Source: an uncultured Candidatus Saccharibacteria bacterium
GTDB taxonomy: Bacteria > Patescibacteriota > Minisyncoccia > Ryanbacterales > HO2-45-13
DNA length: 64,000 bases
Direction of reading: 5' to 3'
Assembly (NCBI GenBank): GCA_964354975.1
Contig: CAYHBS010000001.1
Span: forward strand, 56,282 to 120,281
Part shown: one piece after another, positions 3,771 to 45,700 of the stretch
Numbering within the stretch: the first letter of the stretch is position 1
Layout: every line of letters starts with the position of its first letter
The notes under the pieces: model-generated
Told to the model about the DNA's origin: nothing
The model's input: the letters and a program-made list of their open reading frames with translations, nothing else
Database searches by the model: none
Program-made: the position numbers and the translations under genes

Positions 3771-3856
3771 GATGATCCCGTTGATTTATTGTTTTCATGT
3801 TTTTGTGATCTCGTGATTTAATGTTCTCGTGATTTTATGTTCTTATGCTCTCGTGA
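3771..3856. repeat. Degenerate ~16-nt tandem repeat array in the rpmJ-rpsM spacer (same family as 3225-3300)
   Basis: ttgttttcatgtttttgtgatctcgtgatttaatgttctcgtgattttatgttcttatgctctcgtgatt. Confidence 0.6.
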
Positions 3857-3970
3857 TTAACCCTGCCTCTGTTTATGTTTTGGCGTAGAACAAATCACTC
3901 GCACGCGTCCTCCACGGCGAATGACTTTGCATTTTGCGCAAATCTTTTTAACTGAAGATCGAACTTTCAT
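3857..3970 (-). CDS. rpmJ: 50S ribosomal protein L36
   Basis: Not in ORF track (37 aa). Reverse complement reads [37 protein letters not shown], a canonical L36, located between infA and rpsM as expected. Confidence 0.9.
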
Positions 3971-4256: not shown

Positions 4257-5747
4257 CTAGGGGCTAAGCACTTCTATGTGAATTTTGGAGGTTCGCGAAG
4301 GAATTCTCCGCCACCACGAAGGGGTAAACCGCACATCGGCCGACTCGATAGCGCTATACCCGGAAAAGACGTCTTTAATCGTACTCACTTTGGCCTGTTG
4401 GATGTCTTCGGCAAGCTGATTTGCATCTGGCATGACCGCAATGCGGATGCTACCGGAAAGTTGAATGCTCGCTTGCTTCGCTTCGCTAAAATTGAGCACC
4501 GAAAATCCATCAAATGAGAGCGTGCGTAAACTGTTTTTTTCTGCAGGAAAATCTTCAAATAAAATTTCTTCGAGTATATTATTGAGATCCTCGGTGCGCA
4601 CAAGTACGCCCGATAGTGTGCCCGACATGGATATTTCAAATGATTCTGCTGGTTTTCCTACCACGGGATTTGATTCTGCCGCTCCGAGCGCTGGTGCACC
4701 GAACGGAATAAGTGTAAATCCTTCCGCCGCCGATGATGTGAGTTCGGCGGTAAGCACATCAGTGAGTTGCTGACGCAGCTCCGTAGAAGCGGCAGTGACG
4801 TCTTCAATTGCGACAATGCCGGACTCACCGATAAATCCCCCATCAATCACTCCTACAGATTCTCCATAGAATCCTTGATATTTCGGCGAGCCCTGAAATC
4901 CAGGAATCGTAAACTTCGTCGTGTCCGTGATATTGTATGCGGTTCCTGGTTGATCTGCATACACCGTCACCTCAATGCTTTTCGGAACAATCTTGCCACC
5001 TTCCGTTGTCGCGGCCGGGACAGTGACCGCTTCTTTAATGCGATATATATTCCCTGCCGGTGACATAAATCGCGTGCGTGCGGAGAGCGCCTGCGGGGAT
5101 GTGCCAAAATTATTCACGATCTTTATGCGCCCTGATGCGACGCTACGCACGGGTTGTTTTTTTGTGGCAGTGCGTGTCACAGAAACGGTCTTGTCCGCGC
5201 TCACTTTACTTCCCGCGAGCTCGAACACCGCGGGCTTTTCCAATTTGTACAGCTGTTCACGTGGAGTCACCACTACTACCATTGCACCAAAGGCATTCAT
5301 GGCGAACACGCCCCCAATAACGACCGCAATAAACGCAAGCCCCGTGAGCACTGCTGTGCGTGGACCTTTTCGGCGCGGCGTATTTCCTGCTGCGGTAGAC
5401 GCGGAGGTGGCCGCTGTTGACATCGATGCACTTTGCACTGGTTTGCGTGAAAAATATTGTTCAGCAATCACCTCTTTTTTCTGTGGAGCAGAAAGTGGTG
5501 GATGTGCTTGTTCATTTGGAGGACGCATGGCTCCAACCTGAATTTTTGACGTAGGCACGGCGGTGGGTGGGGGCGTGAGCGATGTGGGCATGGAACGAAG
5601 CGTCTTCGGTGAAGCGCTCGTACTTTTTACGGGGCGCTCAATGGGAGTCACTTGCGCGCGAGGAACAACTCTCTTTGTTGCCGGAGGAGTTTGAGGCGGA
5701 CTTTTTTTGGAGGTGTTTTTATTTGCTGGTCGTTTGATTCCGTCCAT
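4257..5747 (-). CDS. Bitopic membrane protein with Pro-rich cytoplasmic N-terminus and large extracytoplasmic domain (hypothetical; possible PilN/PilO- or divisome-type partner of the upstream actin-like ATPase)
   Basis: 496 aa; single TM (LTGLAFIAVVIGGVFAMNAFGAMVVVV) after a ~130-aa P/T/S-rich segment; tightly coupled (2-nt gap) downstream of the FtsA/PilM-like gene. Confidence 0.6.
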   Translation of the reverse strand: MDGIKRPANKNTSKKSPPQTPPATKRVVPRAQVTPIERPVKSTSASPKTLRSMPTSLTPPPTAVPTSKIQVGAMRPPNEQAHPPLSAPQKKEVIAEQYFSRKPVQSASMSTAATSASTAAGNTPRRKGPRTAVLTGLAFIAVVIGGVFAMNAFGAMVVVVTPREQLYKLEKPAVFELAGSKVSADKTVSVTRTATKKQPVRSVASGRIKIVNNFGTSPQALSARTRFMSPAGNIYRIKEAVTVPAATTEGGKIVPKSIEVTVYADQPGTAYNITDTTKFTIPGFQGSPKYQGFYGESVGVIDGGFIGESGIVAIEDVTAASTELRQQLTDVLTAELTSSAAEGFTLIPFGAPALGAAESNPVVGKPAESFEISMSGTLSGVLVRTEDLNNILEEILFEDFPAEKNSLRTLSFDGFSVLNFSEAKQASIQLSGSIRIAVMPDANQLAEDIQQAKVSTIKDVFSGYSAIESADVRFTPSWWRRIPSRTSKIHIEVLSP

Positions 5748-13721: not shown

Positions 13722-13804
13722 GCGGGGAATAAGGGAATCGCAAGCACTATGAGGGCTTATAATTTTCGCGCTACAAACATATGCGATACACACGGCGATT
13801 CCGG

Positions 13805-13876
13805 CGGGAGTGCCAGGATTCGAACCTGGATAGCTGGTTTTGGAGACCAGAGTCTTAGCCGTTGGACGACACTCCC
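13805..13876 (-). tRNA. tRNA-Trp (anticodon CCA)
   Basis: Reverse complement GGGAGTGTCGTCCAACGGCTAAGACTCTGGTCTCCAAAACCAGCTATCCAGGTTCGAATCCTGGCACTCCCG: 7-bp acceptor stem, anticodon loop CTCCAAA, T-loop GGTTCGAATCC. Confidence 0.85.
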
Positions 13877-13941
13877 CTCTACACTCAAAGACAGCTTTTA
13901 GCTTATAGGTTTTAGTGCGGCACGCCAAGCCGCGTCTCACA

Positions 13942-13967
13942 CAAACGGCTCCATACGGAGCCGTTTG
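13942..13967. terminator. Perfect 11-bp stem-loop (caaacggctcc atac ggagccgtttg) between rpmG and tRNA-Trp; no clear U-tract
   Basis: seen in sequence; may be a processing/structural hairpin rather than an intrinsic terminator. Confidence 0.35.
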
Positions 13968-14063
13968 CTACTAAGTACACGTATTGCTTTCTCTGTAATC
14001 TCCGACGCATTTGGTCGGGTCCCGACTCCCATGAAAAGTAGAATATAACGTCGGGACTATCCG

Positions 14064-14222
14064 CTATTTCTTCATTTCCTTATGCGGAGTATGTGTTTTA
14101 CACCACTTGCAGTGTTTTTTGAGATCAATCTTGCGCTCAACTTTCTTTTTGTTTTTGCTGGACCAATAGTTAATACGCTTGCATTTGGTGCACTGCAGTT
14201 TTATCAGATTAGGTTGCGGCAT
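14064..14222 (-). CDS. rpmG: 50S ribosomal protein L33
   Basis: Not in ORF track (52 aa). MPQPNLIKLQCTKCKRINYWSSKNKKKVERKIDLKKHCKWCKTHTPHKEMKK*, a Cys4 zinc-ribbon L33. Confidence 0.88.
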   Translation of the reverse strand: MPQPNLIKLQCTKCKRINYWSSKNKKKVERKIDLKKHCKWCKTHTPHKEMKK

Positions 14223-14234
14223 ATCAGTAGAGTG

Positions 14235-14263
14235 ATAGTACACTGAACACGCTCAATAATCAA
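14235..14263 (-). promoter_or_regulatory. Sigma-70-type promoter for rpmG (TTGATT-17 nt-TACTAT on minus strand)
   Basis: seen in sequence; -10 ends ~12 nt upstream of the rpmG ATG, so the leader is very short. Confidence 0.5.
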
Positions 14264-14293
14264 GAACACGTGATCACCCGATTGCCAAAATTA

Positions 14294-14322
14294 TTGACAA
14301 GAGTGTGATTATATTGTACTAT
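14294..14322 (+). promoter_or_regulatory. Consensus sigma-70 promoter TTGACA-17 nt-TACTAT for the NUDIX gene
   Basis: ttgacaagagtgtgattatattgtactat; divergent from the rpmG promoter. Confidence 0.6.
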
Positions 14323-14362
14323 CGGTACAAATCTACTGCGCTCAGCGCAAGGAGAACGTACG

Positions 14363-14845
14363 TTGCAAGAAGAGTACATAAAACCTGAAAAACGTTTCTA
14401 CAATTGTGACCCTTGTGAGGATTGGTCTTCACTCGTCTTCGTGAGAGTTGTGGAACACGGTAGTTTACTTGGCTACGTATTTATTTACGAACCGCACCGT
14501 GGAGATCCGCGGCTCTACAAACTACCGGGAGGATCTAAGGAGGCGAATGAATCTCCGGTAGAGACCGCTCAACGGGAGCTCAAGGGAGAGACGGGTATTT
14601 CTCTTCCCTTGTCAATGTTCGAGTTCGTCGATAAGGAGTGGCGAGAAAAACCCTCGGAACACTGGCGCATCTACTTTCAGGTGGATATCACGGTCACTGA
14701 CCGCGACTGGATGCGAGATGACGCATCCGGAAACGAAGGAGAAGTTCCCGAATTCTTTACACCGCGGAGGTGGAGGGATCTTATCGCAAACGGAGGTTTT
14801 CTCGAGCCACATTTGCGCGTATTGAGCGCAAATGAACTGCTATAA
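14363..14845 (+). CDS. NUDIX hydrolase
   Basis: 160 aa; TTG start with SD AAGGAGA 7 nt upstream; Nudix box GGSKEANESPVETAQRELKGETGI. Confidence 0.8.
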   Translation: MQEEYIKPEKRFYNCDPCEDWSSLVFVRVVEHGSLLGYVFIYEPHRGDPRLYKLPGGSKEANESPVETAQRELKGETGISLPLSMFEFVDKEWREKPSEHWRIYFQVDITVTDRDWMRDDASGNEGEVPEFFTPRRWRDLIANGGFLEPHLRVLSANELL

Positions 14846-14889
14846 CAAAGCGCCCGTAACCACATTCGTGGTCGGGCGCTTTATATTTC

Positions 14890-15164
14890 TGGAGCCGTTG
14901 GCCGGAATTGAACCGGCGACCTACTCCTTCATTTACACCCCAATTTCGTAAAACATATATGGGGATTAGACTGTATCTTTGGCATATCCTTTCGGACGTA
15001 GCCACCCTTGTCAGTCGTTCGGGCCCTCGACTTCGCTCGGGCCACGGTCTTAACTCGATTTGAGTCTTTGACCGTAATTCGGGATTCATCTCAGAATTTC
15101 TTCTGAGATGGGCAGGGGCGTGTGGCCCCACCATGGAGTTGCTCTACCATCTGAGCTACAACGG
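14890..15164 (-). tRNA. tRNA-Thr (anticodon GGU inferred) interrupted by a 199-nt group I-like intron in the anticodon loop; CCA encoded
   Basis: 5' exon 15164..15129 GCCGTTGTAGCTCAGATGGTAGAGCAACTCCATGGT; 3' exon 14929..14890 AAGGAGTAGGTCGCCGGTTCAATTCCGGCCAACGGCTCCA; perfect acceptor, D, anticodon and T stems once 199 nt are removed. Confidence 0.75.
14930..15128 (-). ncRNA. Group I-like self-splicing intron (199 nt) inside the tRNA-Thr anticodon loop
   Basis: 5' exon ends in U (U-1), intron ends in G (omega-G); possible P1 between exon TGGT and intron GCCA; candidate P7 strands GACTG / CAGTC (ACGACTGACAAGG ... ACAGTCTAATCC); no ORF inside. Confidence 0.6.
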
Positions 15165-15217
15165 CACATGGGAACGAGTAACTCTGTATCCGCCAACCAG
15201 CGGAGCGCTACATGAGT

Positions 15218-15805
15218 TTATGGTAGCTCTGCGATGAACGCACACAGCTTATCACGAAGTTTTCGATTATTAAAGTGCACAGTGAGTACTCCATATTTCG
15301 CTTTATGTTTATAGTTGCCCACTCCTCGCGCCGGCGTGATAATCACTTTTTGAAACGCTGCCCGCGGAGCTGATATCTCACGCCTCCAATATGCGAGCGC
15401 AACCGATGGATTGGTGTCTGAAAATATTTGCAGGCCATATCTTAACTTCGCTTTATGTATACGAAATCGCTGTTCAAGAAATTTAAGAAAGTATCTAATG
15501 AGTTTTGGGTCGCTATTTCCAAGTCGCACTGAAGAAAGATTACGCTTTGTTCCTTCGCCCCAATATAAACCTATGCCTAAACCTTCCAAAAATGCTTCTT
15601 CTCGAATTTTAGGTGCAGCATATGAAAACGGATCACCTCCTGGGTTATGTTTAATATATACCGCATCCCGAATAGCACGTTTAGGAATTTCGTGCTTTTT
15701 TAGCCAATAATTAATGGTGCTTGTCCCTTTTTTCGTACGCTGGGCAATTTCCTTTGCCGACAACTGCTCACGTACATACATTTGCAACAGCGTTAATTTA
15801 TCCAT
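15218..15805 (-). CDS. HTH + LAGLIDADG-like (I-SceI-type GIGLxxGxG motif) homing-endonuclease-like protein, paralog of 29858-30487
   Basis: 195 aa; N-terminal HTH (LSAKEIAQRTKKGTSTINYWLKKHEI); EGLGIGLYWGEGTKRN resembles I-SceI EAGIGLILGDAYIRSR (from memory); stop codon 54 nt upstream of the intron-containing tRNA-Thr. Confidence 0.6.
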   Translation of the reverse strand: MDKLTLLQMYVREQLSAKEIAQRTKKGTSTINYWLKKHEIPKRAIRDAVYIKHNPGGDPFSYAAPKIREEAFLEGLGIGLYWGEGTKRNLSSVRLGNSDPKLIRYFLKFLEQRFRIHKAKLRYGLQIFSDTNPSVALAYWRREISAPRAAFQKVIITPARGVGNYKHKAKYGVLTVHFNNRKLRDKLCAFIAELP

Positions 15806-16061
15806 ACATCTAAATATATAAAATTACAAACTACACATTATTTAATTGATATACATTAATTTACCTGTAGTATAATAGTAACATATTAGGATATCGGTAC
15901 GCCACGCGTTCATGTGTGTGAGGAGTCTTGGAGTCATCGGGAATGATGAGATGAGTTAGAGGCACATATGTAATATAATATTTACGAGTGCACTGGTTCC
16001 CTGTACAGTATCAAGCACATACGTTAGTGGCCCCCTACACGGGACACTGATGATAAATAAT

Positions 16062-16145
16062 GCGTCGGTGGCGGAGTGGTCAATCGCACCAGACTGTAAA
16101 TCTGGCGGCCTTAGGCCTACGAAGGTTCGAATCCTTCCCGGCGCA
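16062..16145 (+). tRNA. tRNA-Tyr (anticodon GUA), long variable arm
   Basis: GCGTCGGTGGCGGAGTGGTCAATCGCACCAGACTGTAAATCTGGCGGCCTTAGGCCTACGAAGGTTCGAATCCTTCCCGGCGCA. Confidence 0.85.
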
Positions 16146-16304
16146 CACATTGCCAAAATCGGAGCACGGCTCCGGTTTTGTTGCTATGTGTAGTGATCGC
16201 GAGGGATTCGAAGGCGAGCACGCAAGGGTTCCATCAGTAGATGGAAACGTGCGAGCGTGGTCAGGCGGAGAAATGTTTCGACGGAAACATTTCGAGCGCT
16301 TGAC

Positions 16305-29593: not shown

Positions 29594-29614
29594 ATATACC
29601 CCCTAGGGGTATAT
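29594..29614. promoter_or_regulatory. Candidate CsoR operator: 9-bp perfect inverted repeat ATATACCCC-cta-GGGGTATAT 12 nt upstream of csoR
   Basis: seen in sequence; matches the GC-core pseudo-palindrome TACCC-N-GGGTA typical of CsoR boxes (established knowledge). Confidence 0.65.
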
Positions 29615-29663
29615 GCAAGTGGATATCTCAAAATAGGAAACCCGCACATGCATGCGGGTGTAT

Positions 29664-29738
29664 TGGAGCCACCTCTCGGATTTGAACCGAGGACCCACGC
29701 TTTACAAAAGCGTTGCTCTACCACTGAGCTAAGGTGGC
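29664..29738 (-). tRNA. tRNA-Thr (anticodon UGU), CCA encoded
   Basis: GCCACCTTAGCTCAGTGGTAGAGCAACGCTTTTGTAAAGCGTGGGTCCTCGGTTCAAATCCGAGAGGTGGCTCCA. Confidence 0.85.
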
Positions 29739-29852
29739 AAATTTTTTCGAACGTCGGGATTCCGACTTCATTATTTATATACCAGATAGTGCGTCAGAGC
29801 AAAACAGTTGCGGCATTTACCCCACATCACGCGCAGCGTTGGTGGGGGGGGC

Positions 29853-29881
29853 CTGAGCTAAGGTAGCAAATTTTTCGAACG
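29853..29881. repeat. Direct repeat (29/30 nt, 1 mismatch + 1 indel) of the tRNA-Thr(UGU) 5' end plus 14 nt of its upstream region (first copy 29724-29753)
   Basis: ctgagctaaggtagcaaatttttcgaacg vs ctgagctaaggtggcaaattttttcgaacg; contains the stop codon and last codons of the adjacent homing-endonuclease-like gene. Confidence 0.8.
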
Positions 29882-30487
29882 ATATTCGTCAATCCAGTAG
29901 TTCAATCGATCCAGCAATAATACGTCCGAATACCGCACTGAAACTGTACCATACGCCGATAATCTTTTGTAGCTTCCGCGCGAAGTATTGTGAATTCGCG
30001 ATTTACTGAATTGTGTCAGTGGAATTTGCACCGTACGCGCCCAGAATTCTTTCAATTCTCTCTCTGATTGATGTGGGTAATAGTGCATCAAAATCCTCAA
30101 GCGAGTCTCATCAATTCCACAAATCTTCCTTAAGAAACGTACAAACAGTAATATGAGGTCCGGATCGCTATTTGAAAGCGCCACTGAGGTTCCCGACTTC
30201 GTGCCCTCACCCCAATACAACATAATCCCTGCAACGCTCAACAACGTCTCCTCCCGCGACATATTCACCTTTACCGAATGTGCCTTCTTGTGATGCTTTG
30301 TTCTATGTAACTCCCGTGCAGCAGCTGAAGTGTCTCTGCGTGAAATTTTTGAATCAATTAAAGTGGTGCGCACCCGATACGGCGTCATCTTTAAAGCTTC
30401 TGCAATCTGCTGGACTGACAACTTTTGCTCAGTGTATAGTCCTATAATTTTAGCTCGCTCGGTCCGCACCAGTTCTTCTCGCCTCAT
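29858..30487 (-). CDS. HTH + LAGLIDADG-like homing-endonuclease-like protein, paralog of 15218-15805
   Basis: 209 aa; HTH (LSVQQIAEALKMTPYRVRTTL); SVAGIMLYWGEGTKSGTSVALSNSDPDLILLFVRFL aligns with EGLGIGLYWGEGTKRNLSSVRLGNSDPKLIRYFLKFL of the other copy (about 35% identity overall). Confidence 0.6.
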   Translation of the reverse strand: MRREELVRTERAKIIGLYTEQKLSVQQIAEALKMTPYRVRTTLIDSKISRRDTSAAARELHRTKHHKKAHSVKVNMSREETLLSVAGIMLYWGEGTKSGTSVALSNSDPDLILLFVRFLRKICGIDETRLRILMHYYPHQSERELKEFWARTVQIPLTQFSKSRIHNTSRGSYKRLSAYGTVSVRYSDVLLLDRLNYWIDEYRSKNLLP

Positions 30488-30623
30488 ATCACTATGATAT
30501 CACGCGCTAACTGTTTTATACTAGTTAGTCTGTGTATATATTTTGGGTTGCGTAGTTAAAGAAACTGAAGCCGTGGTAAGTATAAAGCTACCTGTGTAAC
30601 AAGAATATTAAATATGTTTGAAT

Positions 30624-42709: not shown

Positions 42710-45700
42710 TTACTGCGCGAGTATTAACTGTAACTGACGCTGGAGTTCGAGTAACCGTTCACGAAGCGACTCAATCTGTGTGGGAGTAGAGGAGCTCGTA
42801 AGTCCGGGAGGTGGAGCACCGGAGCCTGCACATTGACCAACGGTGGCGCCACTTGCAAGTGCGGCTCTCGTACGCGGTCCCACTCCCCCATGTCCGGTGG
42901 TGGTGGGGTCTCCGCTACATACGCCAAGGCGTTCACATTGGTACCGTTTGAGTGCACGCTCGGTGAGTGCGCCAAAGTAGTCAGATTCCTCGCCGGGTGC
43001 TCCGGGACCGGAGGAAGCGACGGTATGTCCAATCTTGTTCAGGTACTGTTGGAGCGAGTGTACATCAGCCCCAAATTCGCCAAAGACGAGCCAGCGCGTG
43101 ATTGTGATACCGGGTGTGGTGACACTGCAGACTCCGGGATACGCAGATCCCGGTCCTTCAGTAATAATTTCTGATCCATCACTGTTGTAGTTTGCAGAAG
43201 GGCGCGTTGCGACTGTGGGGAGAGAAACATTTCCATGCACATCAAGCGCAAAGATGGCGTAAAAGGTATTGGGCACTGTAACTGCTCCGTCCACAATGGC
43301 TGTCATGGGACCTTCATATATAATCGCGGATCCATCAGCCCCGGAGGCACTCGTCGGGGCGTTTCCTGCTTTCCGCAAAATCCGCACACGCGAGAAATCA
43401 GAATCAGAAGGATTTACCCAGTGGAGTGTCGCAGTGCCATCGCCGTTCTGAACCGCGCTAAATGCAGTCGGTGAGAGTGGAGCGATATAGTCGGAGGTTC
43501 CTCCTCCACTCCCAACACTTCCTCCTCCGACAGTACCTGTGATGGTGCCGGGAAGAATGCGATATGAGATGAATTCTGGGTCAGAAAAAGTTCCTTCATC
43601 ATCGTATGTGAATACCGTGTAGTAGTACGCCGTGCCCACAACTGCAGAGGTGTCCGTATAGGTGGTTCCGGTGATGTCTGCGAGCGCAGTAGCGCGCGAT
43701 GGAGTGAGGATGAAATCGGTGTCGCTTCGCATCACAATGGTTCCTGCATAAAATTCATACTCCGTTGGATTATTCCAGCGTAGAATAATGGAACCACTTG
43801 AAGCGGTGAGCTCCGTGACCTTCGGGGATTTCGGGAGACGTGCAACCGTGTACGTACCTATAATGCTGGAGGTGCGCGTATTTCCAGCGGCATCTCTCGA
43901 TGATACTTGGACGTAATAGATGGTCTTGCGGTCGAGGTTATGAATGGTAACGGTGTGGGACGTCACATACCTCGGATCTTCTTCAGTGAGCTCCCCGAGA
44001 TCTCCGCTGGTACCATATGCCACTCGAGAGGTTGCGGGTTCATTCGTCGTCCATGTGACCACTAGCTGGTCGCCGCGCGAGGAGTCTGCCAAGAGATTCG
44101 AAATGGTAGGCGCGGTGGTATCAGTGATGACGGGGTCTGCTTCACTGTCGTCCGTGGCACTCGTGCATCCGGGGTCGTTGGAGGTAGCAGTGCCGTAGTC
44201 AATCTTGCCGTCTCCGTCATTGTCGATGCCATCCGCACACGCCACCGGGATCACGATATTCACAACAACACTGTCCGTGGACGCGACTGCGCCGGCTTGA
44301 TAGCACGTAAGAGCGTAGGTGGTAGCTTGGATGAGCGTAGGAGTGGTTTGCGTACCAGCAGTCCCCGTCCATGCAGTTCCGGAGGGGTTTGACACCACGG
44401 TGCAAGAACCTGCGTTTGTAGACGACCACTGAATAGCGGCCGTGGTACCGGTGTTGAGTGAAATAGAACCTCCGGTGTATGTGCCGCTGTTTGAGGGACG
44501 CGCCTTGATATCAGCAGTGCTCACGGGATTGATCTCACTGGTGTCGGTGGCACTTGTGCATCCAAAGTCTGCCGGATAGTCGATCTTGCCGTCACTGTCA
44601 TTGTCGAGACCGTCTGCGCAGACTGCGAGCGGCGCGTTGTATTCGTCGTTGTCGGTGCTCGAGGAGCATCCGAGATCAGCGAGATCAATCTTCCCGTCTC
44701 CGTCATTGTCGAGACCGTCGGAGCAGGTATATACAGGAGGTGGTGCGTTGTATTCATCGGTGTCGGTGAGACTCGTGCATCCGGGGTCGTTGTTTGTTCC
44801 GGTGCCAAAGTCAATCTTGGTGTCTCCGTCATTGTCGAGGCCGTCGGAGCAGGCGGGAGGTGGTGCGGTGACAATGGTGAGGCCATCTTGTATGGACCAA
44901 CCGTCAGCGCCAGATGCAAAATCAATATTCCACCACCAAAATGGAGTCCCACTGAAGACGGCGTACTTGGGTCCTGCAATTACCGTTCCATTTTGATTGT
45001 CGAGTTGATCCCCGATATCCGTACCCCCGGGGATGTCGCGCACGTTCAGGAATGTTGTTGTCGTGACTTTCACGGCGTTCCCAATCGCAAACTTCGTACT
45101 CACGGGGGTGGGATTGGATTCATCGTTGTCGGTTGCGAGCACACATCCATAGTCCGCCATGTCTACTTTTCCATCGCCGTCATCATCGATGCTGTTGGCG
45201 CAGAGTGCCGCTACAGGAGGAGGCGTCGTCACACTTACATTACAGCTCGCGCTCGTACTGTTTGACGTGACCGAAACACTCTTAGTGCCGGTGGTGCTGT
45301 AGGTAGTCGAGAATGTTGCTCCCGTGCCTGTGGAAGGAGTGCCTCCGGTCGCAGTCCAGGAGTAGGTGCCGTTTCCATTTGCGGCGGTAAATGAGGCGGA
45401 GGCGCTGGTGTATACCGACTGGGTTGTGGGACTGCAGGTCACTGGGGATATAGGAGATGGTGCGTTGTATTCATCATTGTCGGTGAGACTCGTGCATCCC
45501 GGGTCATTGCTCGCCCCTGTACCGTAGTCGATCTTGGTGTCTCCGTCATTGTCGAGGCCGTCGGAGCAGGCGGCTATGGGTGCGTTGTATTCATCCGTAT
45601 CAGTTGAAGATGAGCAACCAGGATCTGTCGGATAGTCTGTTTTCCCGTCGCCGTCATTGTCGATGCCGTCTGCGCAGACGGCAGGGGGAGGAGGAGTGGT

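Follow-up and report, generated by a model that had tools for sequence, protein, structure and literature searches.

An endonuclease-like gene family that adjoins specific tRNA genes in CPR bacteria, and a duplicated junction between gene end and tRNA-Thr(UGU) start

Results

A duplicated gene-end/tRNA-start junction at tRNA-Thr(UGU)

A 64,000-nucleotide (nt) stretch of DNA from an ultra-small groundwater bacterium of the Candidate Phyla Radiation (CPR/Patescibacteria), hereafter the window, contains an intact gene of 209 amino acids (aa; 29858..30487) whose last codons and stop are a copy of the start of the tRNA-Thr(UGU) gene lying downstream of it. The gene belongs to a family of endonuclease-like genes that adjoin specific tRNA genes, and the junction between gene end and tRNA start is present twice at this locus. 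We lean towards reading the family as selfish and tRNA-targeting, and the window as a site at which the junction was duplicated, leaving the gene and its tRNA uncoupled.

The gene, a dead tRNA fragment, a spacer and the live tRNA all lie on the minus strand. The upstream direct repeat (DR1, 29853..29881, 29 nt, located with a repeat finder and a fuzzy search) reads CGTTCGAAAAA-TTTGCTACCTTAGCTCAG from 29881 to 29853 and consists of the gene tail (29868-29881; the codons for RSKN and the first two bases of the next Leu codon) followed by a 15-nt dead tRNA 5' stub (GCTACCTTAGCTCAG, 29853-29867), which supplies the rest of Leu-Leu-Pro, the TAG (29858-29860) and 5 more nt. The downstream repeat (DR2, 29724..29753, 30 nt; CGTTCGAAAAAATTTGCCACCTTAGCTCAG from 29753 to 29724) joins a 15-nt copy of the tail to the first 15 nt of the live tRNA-Thr(UGU) (29664..29738; detected by ARAGORN and, at 71.6 bits, by the Rfam tRNA model). 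The two are separated by the 99-nt spacer S (29754..29852), lie 129 nt apart from start to start, and are 93% identical, the differences being a T-versus-C mismatch at tRNA position 3 and a single extra A. The open reading frame (ORF) ends ...WIDEY RSKNLLP*, encoded by TGG ATT GAC GAA TAT CGT TCG AAA AAT TTG CTA CCT TAG and followed by CTCAG. The statement of the initial annotation that the C-terminus and stop codon are built from tRNA-Thr 5' sequence is thus borne out by the letters of the stub; the TAG does fall inside DR1, but the repeat holds seven sense codons (RSKNLLP) rather than the eight claimed, with 5 nt of it beyond the stop.

We regard a chance match or an assembly artefact as refuted. 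Nothing speaks for either beyond a low-complexity A/T run within the repeat: the 29-mer, searched at ≤3 mismatches, gave any match in 0 of 100 shuffles, and the 15-mer tRNA start at ≤2 mismatches has exactly two matches against 0.07 expected. DR1, spacer and DR2 are identical in at least eight independently assembled contigs (L001-L006, L099, L102-L106; Hainich groundwater samples and other runs), which rules out an assembly artefact, and a homologous stub and spacer occur in four related contigs (L087-L090, described below). The window holds no third copy of the repeat, and an Rfam search at E≤10 over 29600-29920 returned the live tRNA only and no pseudo-tRNA at DR1.

Family genes adjoin one specific tRNA gene, and clades match the tRNA

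A scan of one genome per GTDB species (185,579 species representatives) found relatives of the gene in 291, with a patchy distribution. We studied the loci of the best 80 of these 291 relatives together with the two family genes of the window, of which 80 were usable in all; nearly all come from CPR/Patescibacteria lineages. Typical family genes together with CPR-like tRNA clusters also turned up on a few contigs of metagenome-assembled genomes (MAGs) labelled Ruminiclostridium, Gammaproteobacteria, Bdellovibrionales or Pseudomonadales (L013, L027, L034, L042, L048, L052, L057), and these contigs are probably mis-binned CPR.

A same-strand tRNA begins between -100 and +70 nt of the stop codon in 70 of the 80 loci; a further seven, all of the Thr(UGU) clade and with no downstream tRNA, have the cognate tRNA-Thr(UGU) 57-100 nt upstream of the gene, so that 77 of 80 adjoin one specific tRNA gene. 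The 80 proteins fall, in a neighbour-joining tree, into three clades, Thr(GGU), Tyr(GUA) and Thr(UGU), which coincide with the identity of the adjacent tRNA: all 24 genes of the Thr(GGU) clade lie at Thr(GGU) tRNAs, and Gly and Leu tRNAs are represented by single cases. The window itself holds one gene of the Thr(UGU) clade (29858-30487) and one of the Thr(GGU) clade (15218-15805).

In both threonine clades the modal geometry is a 10-nt overlap of gene and tRNA, in which the stop codon TAG is U8-A9-G10 of a live tRNA and nothing is duplicated. Three genes continue to a TAA in the tRNA anticodon loop, and the Tyr clade mostly uses a TAA of its own, 1-7 nt ahead of the tRNA. At L041, L048 and L069 no stop interrupts the family ORF ahead of the tRNA or in its first part, and the ORF traverses the whole tRNA gene, an overlap of 84-94 nt. 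Since a stop inside the tRNA is the family norm without any duplication, the gene end was not created by the duplication event, as the initial annotation had proposed; the duplication copied a junction that already existed, and the TAG of the window gene is inherited from the normal architecture of the family.

The duplication is the uncommon part. Among the family loci scanned, the window alone repeats the tRNA start (16 nt, ≤3 mismatches), and the same signature, which the initial annotation had suggested seeking at other paralog junctions, is absent there, including at the window's own paralog. At L012 an orphan tRNA 5' fragment lies just upstream of an intact cassette (p<0.002), which indicates that duplication of the tRNA 5' part recurs in the family. 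The idea that the family promoter is in general a degenerate tRNA copy was dropped: alignment of the upstream region with the locus's own tRNA was significant only in L012 and borderline in L020 and L030.

The tRNAs occupied by the family, Thr-UGU, Tyr-GUA, Gly-GCC and Thr-GGU, are those of the conserved bacterial Thr-Tyr-Gly-Thr cluster, located upstream of tuf in E. coli; in many loci (L008, L012, L059, L063, L074 and others) two tRNAs of the cluster enclose the family gene.

A -10 box abuts the start codon

In 45 of 74 family genes the ATG is preceded by a -10-like hexamer ending 4-9 nt (mode 6) ahead of it, against 3.6% of control ATG triplets, and Shine-Dalgarno-like motifs precede only 3 of the 74. 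The closeness of the -10 box to the ATG and the scarcity of Shine-Dalgarno motifs suggest that the genes are transcribed as leaderless mRNAs. The window gene conforms, with the hexamer TATCAT (30494-30499) ending 6 nt ahead of its ATG; it is free-standing, lying between a hypothetical gene (hyp145) and the tRNA, outside any intron or intein, and has its own expression signals. Where the ORF overlaps the tRNA, the tRNA would be made from the same transcript as the gene. Promoters of the Thr(UGU) clade (L007-L035, 20-45 nt upstream of the ATG) show, by eye, an inverted repeat TTGTTA-N-TAACAA between -35 and -10, exemplified by CAGTTGTTATCTAACAACTG in L023. The repeat is a candidate operator for the family protein's own helix-turn-helix (HTH), which would mean autoregulation; the promoter of the window gene has no obvious copy of it.

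Related genomes hold empty and intermediate alleles

We used hyp145, the gene neighbouring the family gene, to compare the locus in three relatives: L094, L092 and L087-L090. In L094 (82% identity in hyp145) and L092 (64%), tRNA-Thr(UGU) follows 40-63 nt after hyp145, with neither family gene nor repeat, and in L092 the same CsoR and CopA genes then follow as in the window. These are the empty sites that the initial annotation had proposed looking for in related genomes. The live tRNA of the window differs from the tRNAs of the empty-site relatives solely at base pair 4:69, and the positions before the live tRNA that match the 14-nt tail carry unrelated sequence in those relatives.

L087-L090 (71% identity, four contigs) also have no family gene, but are not empty in the same way. 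L087 has, after the native 40-nt upstream region, first a tRNA 5' stub (nt 1-18), then a spacer homologous over its full length to that of the window, and last a live tRNA; the upstream stub copy is without the 14-nt gene tail. Relative to L087, the cassette of the window (ATG, gene and 14-nt tail) sits exactly between the native promoter region and the stub. Aligned by eye, the window reads ACAGTTAGCGCGT..GATATCAT--AGTGAT|ATG where L087 reads GCAGTAGCGCGT..GATATCATCCAGTGAAC|GCC; the 27 nt before the ATG (30488..30514, minus strand) resemble the native hyp145-tRNA intergenic region of L087 and L094, so that the ATG occupies the place of tRNA +1 there. Relatives with the duplicated segment and no adjacent gene, which the initial annotation took as the sign of an unrelated duplication, thus exist in part, L087-L090 having stub and spacer but an upstream copy that lacks the tail.

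That annotation had further proposed insertion of the gene into the tRNA 5' flank. Compared with L092 and L094, the gene is indeed an insertion, but the repeats flank the 99-nt spacer and not the gene, and are therefore not a target-site duplication from its insertion. Presence or absence of the gene is polymorphic among relatives, in keeping with the patchy distribution of the family; within the strain, the family gene is present in all 16 contigs with an identical neighbour gene, wherever these are long enough.

Two further features of the locus were seen in this comparison. In L087 (about 4489-4527) the stub is split by a 39-nt GC-rich near-perfect palindrome (CCTGCCTGCCCTGTCTGCCGACAGGCAGGCGGCAGGCAGG), whose place at the start of the window spacer is taken by another GC hairpin (CCCCAC...GTGGGG); the dead tRNA copy seems to gather small insertions of hairpin type. 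The window also has about 109 extra nt (30515-30623, minus strand) between the hyp145 stop and the segment 30488-30514, which is similar to the end of hyp145 and the native intergenic region in relatives, where only 40-63 nt are present in all; the extra piece has the edges AGTAG and AGTTAG and the appearance of a small insertion.

The spacer and its mini-ORF

Spacer S is about 78% identical to that of L087 (~75-80%; alignment, identity by eye) and contains a GC hairpin, a weak terminator-like site (29826..29809), a promoter-like site (CTGACG-16-AATAAT, 29797..29770) and the start of a mini-ORF; neither the terminator-like nor the promoter-like class stands clearly above shuffles. BLAST against all loci and one metagenome scan with a 20-base motif placed the spacer only in this strain and in L087-L090. 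Two other origins were tried and abandoned: a repeated mobile element, as six other metagenome matches proved to be random GC-rich sequence, and a decayed full tRNA, as local alignment of the left part with tRNA nt 16-76 was not significant (p=0.04-0.14).

The mini-ORF (29718..29771, minus strand; ATG AAG TCG GAA TCC CGA CGT TCG AAA AAA TTT GCC ACC TTA GCT CAG TGG TAG) runs from a start codon through five codons and the tail into the live tRNA, in the tail's own reading frame. L087 retains its ATG AAG and keeps the frame across a 3-nt indel, and the nearest relative, L013, begins MKSEF. By its make-up the mini-ORF is a candidate for what an internal deletion left of a second family gene; an nhmmer profile of the promoter plus ATG of the Thr(UGU) clade found no match in the spacer. 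The tail in the window, RSKNL, fits the [RK]xKxL C-terminal tails of L020, L022-L024, L030 and L032, not those of the window gene's nearest relatives. Given this fit, the 14-15 nt preceding the live tRNA may be what is left of a gene tail, fossil coding sequence and not native upstream sequence of the tRNA. The initial annotation had called them the promoter-proximal 14 nt of the tRNA; they are repeated as stated (15 nt in DR2), while their origin may be this different one. DR1 and DR2, at 93%, are more alike than the window and L087 spacers, at about 78%, so the junction copies were made or homogenised more recently than stub and spacer.

The family protein

The product of the window gene is identical to the NCBI MAG protein AAB343_02480 (a hypothetical protein of a Patescibacteria MAG), has its best homologue at only about 54% identity, and in family alignments retains all family-invariant residues. 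Proteins of the family are about 200 aa long, with an N-terminal HTH and a C-terminal domain carrying an invariant LYWGEG motif. The AlphaFold2 (AF2) model of the window protein has a predicted local distance difference test score (pLDDT) of 92.5, and its C-terminal 135 residues form a predicted domain with a pLDDT of 95. Pfam, NCBIfam and PHROGs recognise the N-terminal HTH only, which in PHROGs matches the DNA-binding module of phage 'HNH endonuclease' families (E=1.5e-6, for the paralog); none of the three gave a match to a GIY-YIG domain, the catalytic domain of the SegB family.

The label 'LAGLIDADG-like' rests on the end of the first helix of the C-terminal domain. There, in both AF2 models, lies the motif G-x-x-L-Y-W-G-E-G, in which Y-W-G-E-G is invariant in three alignments and which the regular expression [LIVMF][YFW]WG[ED]G finds in 80 of 80 proteins; a helix with a conserved acidic residue and then Gly at its end is of LAGLIDADG type, the correspondence having been drawn by eye. 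Pfam LAGLIDADG_3 was the most recurrent weak match (5 of 29 C-terminal domains, best E=0.0077), and in a Foldseek search of BFVD, a set of predicted viral structures, the best matches were phage LAGLIDADG endonucleases (E=6e-4 and 4e-3). The window gene itself had no Pfam LAGLIDADG match, a profile search of the PDB matched no solved LAGLIDADG enzyme, and no match to a curated LAGLIDADG model or solved enzyme reached significance. We treat a LAGLIDADG fold of the C-terminal domain as probable. When the initial annotation called the gene a LAGLIDADG-like paralog it was right that the window holds a paralog (15218-15805), but the label finds no confirmation in Pfam or among solved structures.

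The family comprises at least 1,190 protein clusters at E≤0.01. A nuclease Pfam annotation is carried by none of 120 family clusters among the matches listed; the proteins are currently annotated as hypothetical or 'DNA-binding'.

The paralog and intron-bearing tRNAs

The paralog (15218..15805, minus strand, 195 aa, Thr(GGU) clade; 31% identity, E=4e-21) lies 52 nt upstream of an intron-containing tRNA-Thr(GGU) (14890..15165, minus strand; ARAGORN with introns allowed), and its junction shows no duplication. A 200-nt group I intron (about 14930-15129) splits this tRNA after the anticodon. Default ARAGORN and Rfam, even at E≤10, miss the tRNA, and the Rfam Intron_gpI model found none of these introns in the 15 loci searched. 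RNAalifold on 12 homologous introns from other CPR loci paired an exon U to G at the 5' splice site, with all introns ending in G, and gave the helix order P1, P2, P4/6, P7 (GACUG/CAGUC) enclosing P8, then P9, with compensatory changes in 21 of 40 base pairs. The tRNA-Thr(GGU) intron thus has the U.G pair in P1, the core with P7 and the terminal G of a group I intron. Introns occur in 13 of 24 gene-linked Thr(GGU) tRNAs (beside the window paralog and 12 others) versus 7 of 26 elsewhere, an association that we rejected as not significant (p=0.08), and in 0 of 26 cases in the Thr(UGU) clade.

Other tRNAs near family genes can also be split: at L046 and L071, tRNA-Tyr(GUA) beside Tyr-clade genes has anticodon-loop introns of ~200 nt (2 of 18 gene-linked, 0 of 17 unlinked). 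In the window (13803-16146) the paralog lies between a divergent tRNA-Tyr and tRNA-Thr(GGU), with rpmG and tRNA-Trp downstream. A supposed third paralog at 43183-43365 was a spurious tblastn match with no ORF.

Discussion

A selfish family and its rivals

We favour a reading in which the family consists of selfish genes, free-standing and homing-endonuclease-like, for which specific tRNA genes serve as conserved landing sites. The grounds are that the genes are dispensable, as their patchy distribution and the empty sites imply, that the clades are isoacceptor-specific, that two copies sit at two tRNAs in one genome, and that the protein combines an HTH of phage-nuclease type with an invariant acidic motif. 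A typical member would be expressed as a leaderless mRNA from a consensus promoter abutting its ATG; as it lies directly 5' of its cognate tRNA it would probably be co-transcribed with it, and in the threonine clades it would commonly end at U8-A9-G10 of that tRNA. In the window the ancestral junction is present twice: in DR1 a dead 15-nt stub still provides the intact gene with its last codons and stop, and DR2 is the downstream copy that heads the live tRNA. What remains of another cassette copy, namely promoter, ATG, a few codons and tail, is probably contained in the 99-nt spacer, in which case the locus would once have held two tandem cassettes, each with a copy of the tRNA 5' part at its end. 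Their origin could be tandem duplication or the insertion of a second cassette near tRNA nt 15-18; internal deletion would then have removed nearly all of the downstream gene copy, leaving the spacer, while the upstream tRNA copy decayed to the 15-nt stub, and the outcome would be the present uncoupling of family gene and tRNA.

Several points weigh against this reading. Nuclease activity is putative, and so is membership of the LAGLIDADG class: every Pfam LAGLIDADG_3 match is below threshold (E=0.077 for the paralog), Foldseek against the PDB gave no LAGLIDADG match for either AF2 model, and hhalign against I-CreI (sequence verified) returned a probability of 0.24%. Every contig of the strain has the gene, which gives no indication that it still moves; in this lineage neither a close donor nor an intermediate (a gene directly overlapping the tRNA) was found, and tRNA-Thr(UGU) genes with and without a linked family gene do not differ in any way that would mark a change of target or self-immunity. 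The mini-ORF is statistically unsupported as a relic, and the greater identity of DR1 and DR2 than of the spacers requires either recent copying or conversion, or loss of the gene in L087.

A simpler rival than the tandem-cassette history is a one-off duplication of the 30-nt junction together with filler DNA, retained because the tRNA would thereby be freed from the ORF and have a promoter of its own, at a site where there never was a second gene. It accords with gene/tRNA overlap being the commonest state in the two threonine clades, with terminator-like and promoter-like sites in a spacer that the family promoter profile does not recognise, and with the duplication being confined to the window among the family loci scanned. 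We nonetheless find it possible but doubtful, because the spacer, shared with L087 at ~78%, is older than the identity of DR1 and DR2 suggests, because in L087 the stub directly follows native upstream sequence with no gene, so that precise gene loss would be needed, and because the ATG AAG and frame of the mini-ORF are conserved there. It is also improbable, more so than anything else considered here apart from chance or artefact, that insertion of the gene into the tRNA 5' flank made the 29-nt repeat and thereby the gene's C-terminus and stop. Such an event would explain why the gene has duplicated tRNA 5' sequence at its end, why it is an insertion when set against L092 and L094, and why the end of its conserved core WIDEY falls at the very left edge of DR1; and the fragment beyond the intact cassette at L012 makes it probable that insertions duplicating the tRNA 5' part do occur in the family. 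Yet it is the spacer that lies between the repeats, a search upstream of the gene revealed no copy of the tRNA start, L087 has stub and spacer without the gene, a TAG ending inside the tRNA is modal in both threonine clades without duplication, and the tail fits the tails of some other family members.

The family might, alternatively, be neither selfish nor mobile: its proteins could be domesticated DNA- or RNA-binding factors, such as a regulator of tRNA transcription or processing or a tRNA-intron maturase, encoded beside the client tRNA. Strict positional and isoacceptor specificity, the HTH domain, the palindrome between -35 and -10 in Thr(UGU)-clade promoters (by eye), the group I introns in 13 of 24 gene-linked Thr(GGU) tRNAs, and a nuclease fold left unconfirmed by Foldseek against the PDB and by hhalign would all suit such a role. 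LAGLIDADG maturases often lose the catalytic acidic motif, whereas the invariant acidic GEG here suits a catalytic one; phage nucleases have similar HTH domains, the link to introns falls short of significance (p=0.08), and a gene with empty sites in close relatives is dispensable. We therefore consider domestication unlikely, and retain the selfish, tRNA-targeting family as our reading.

Within that reading, one may tentatively go further. Beside introns and inteins, the family could represent a third way of rendering the insertion of a homing endonuclease harmless, with the ORF placed in the 5' leader of a tRNA precursor from which RNase P frees the tRNA. Because the stop lies within the mature tRNA (U8-A9-G10), RNase P processing would leave a non-stop mRNA, so that endonuclease output would be coupled to tRNA maturation. 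The window would then be a footprint of cassette turnover, and its duplicated junction would show that a cassette can rebuild a tRNA through its own copy of the tRNA 5' part. The repeat itself is a lineage-private rearrangement recording turnover at one site, of modest interest; the value of the finding lies in the family pattern more than in the specific repeat.

Relation to known systems

Free-standing homing endonucleases linked to tRNA genes are already known as a kind; what appears to be new is this family and its tRNA-abutting architecture. SegB of phages T4/T6 is a free-standing GIY-YIG homing endonuclease of the tRNA gene region (PMC13096335; Brok-Volchanskaya 2008 as cited there). SegB cuts inside tRNA genes, linkage to such genes is widespread in its family, and tandem duplication of the tRNA-plus-nuclease unit is driven by homology between the 3' end of its gene and the 5' end of a tRNA (PMC13096335). 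The likeness, a free-standing gene beside tRNA genes and a link that holds family-wide, is functional and positional only, and cleavage by the CPR proteins is our inference. SegB is phage-borne and has a GIY-YIG domain, whereas the CPR family is cellular with a different putative catalytic domain; SegB reportedly has no tRNA-isotype preference (PMC13096335), whereas the CPR clades are isoacceptor-specific; and the SegB ORF does not systematically run into the tRNA, whereas the CPR genes typically share nucleotides, including the stop, with it.

In CPR bacteria, LAGLIDADG homing endonucleases are encoded in introns of 16S and 23S rRNA genes (PMC11270868, which does not mention tRNA; also PMC8172020). 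These enzymes share with our family the phylum, stable-RNA genes as targets and a LAGLIDADG-type motif, but their genes reside within self-splicing introns and they are recognised by Pfam LAGLIDADG models; the tRNA-linked family lies at tRNA loci and outside introns, has no significant Pfam nuclease match, and carries an extra N-terminal HTH. It has been remarked in the literature that CPR tRNAs can carry group I introns; we found no account there of endonuclease-like genes abutting tRNA 5' ends in CPR, nor of this family. In collaborative, or trans, homing, free-standing endonucleases lie beside ORF-less group I introns (T4 mobE/I-TevIII, PMC2790892; review PMC3984707). The window paralog and 12 other Thr(GGU)-clade genes, located just upstream of a tRNA with an ORF-less group I intron, resemble this arrangement; it differs in that the intron association of our family is not significant and the Thr(UGU) clade has no introns at all (0/26).

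Islands and prophages integrate in tRNA genes by means of an integrase and restore the tRNA with an element-borne copy; they use tyrosine or serine recombinases, usually duplicate the 3' part of the tRNA, and have repeats that flank the whole element. The window resembles them in using a tRNA gene as landing site and in having a duplicated tRNA segment, of which one copy is dead and the other completes the live tRNA. It differs in duplicating the 5' part and in having repeats that flank only 99 nt, where the attachment (att) repeats of an integrase-type element would enclose the element, and no integrase or recombinase was found among the genes called on the 6.6-kb locus L001.

Should the proteins be active endonucleases, the family would be a large untapped set of compact (~200 aa) enzymes, with at least 1,190 clusters and tRNA-gene specificities sorted by isoacceptor, useful for studying the recognition of highly conserved sites and possibly as meganuclease scaffolds. 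If our reading is true, selfish nucleases in the reduced genomes of CPR bacteria colonise tRNA genes, and not only rRNA introns, by sharing nucleotides, and probably a transcript, with the tRNA, which raises questions about the coupling of translation, RNase P processing and ribosome rescue. There is also a consequence for annotation, as family genes are labelled hypothetical or 'DNA-binding' and neighbouring intron-bearing tRNAs escape default ARAGORN and Rfam.

A minor observation concerns the other end of the live tRNA. In L002, a contig of the same strain (ERZ1292643, about 3840-3915), the sequence departs from that of the window within the 3' acceptor strand of tRNA-Thr(UGU) (GAGAGGCGGCTCATGCGC...), giving a tRNA with an A4.C69 mismatch and without CCA, followed by different DNA downstream, and several other contigs end within this tRNA. 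The divergence in L002 may be the junction of an element integrated at the 3' half of the tRNA in part of the population.

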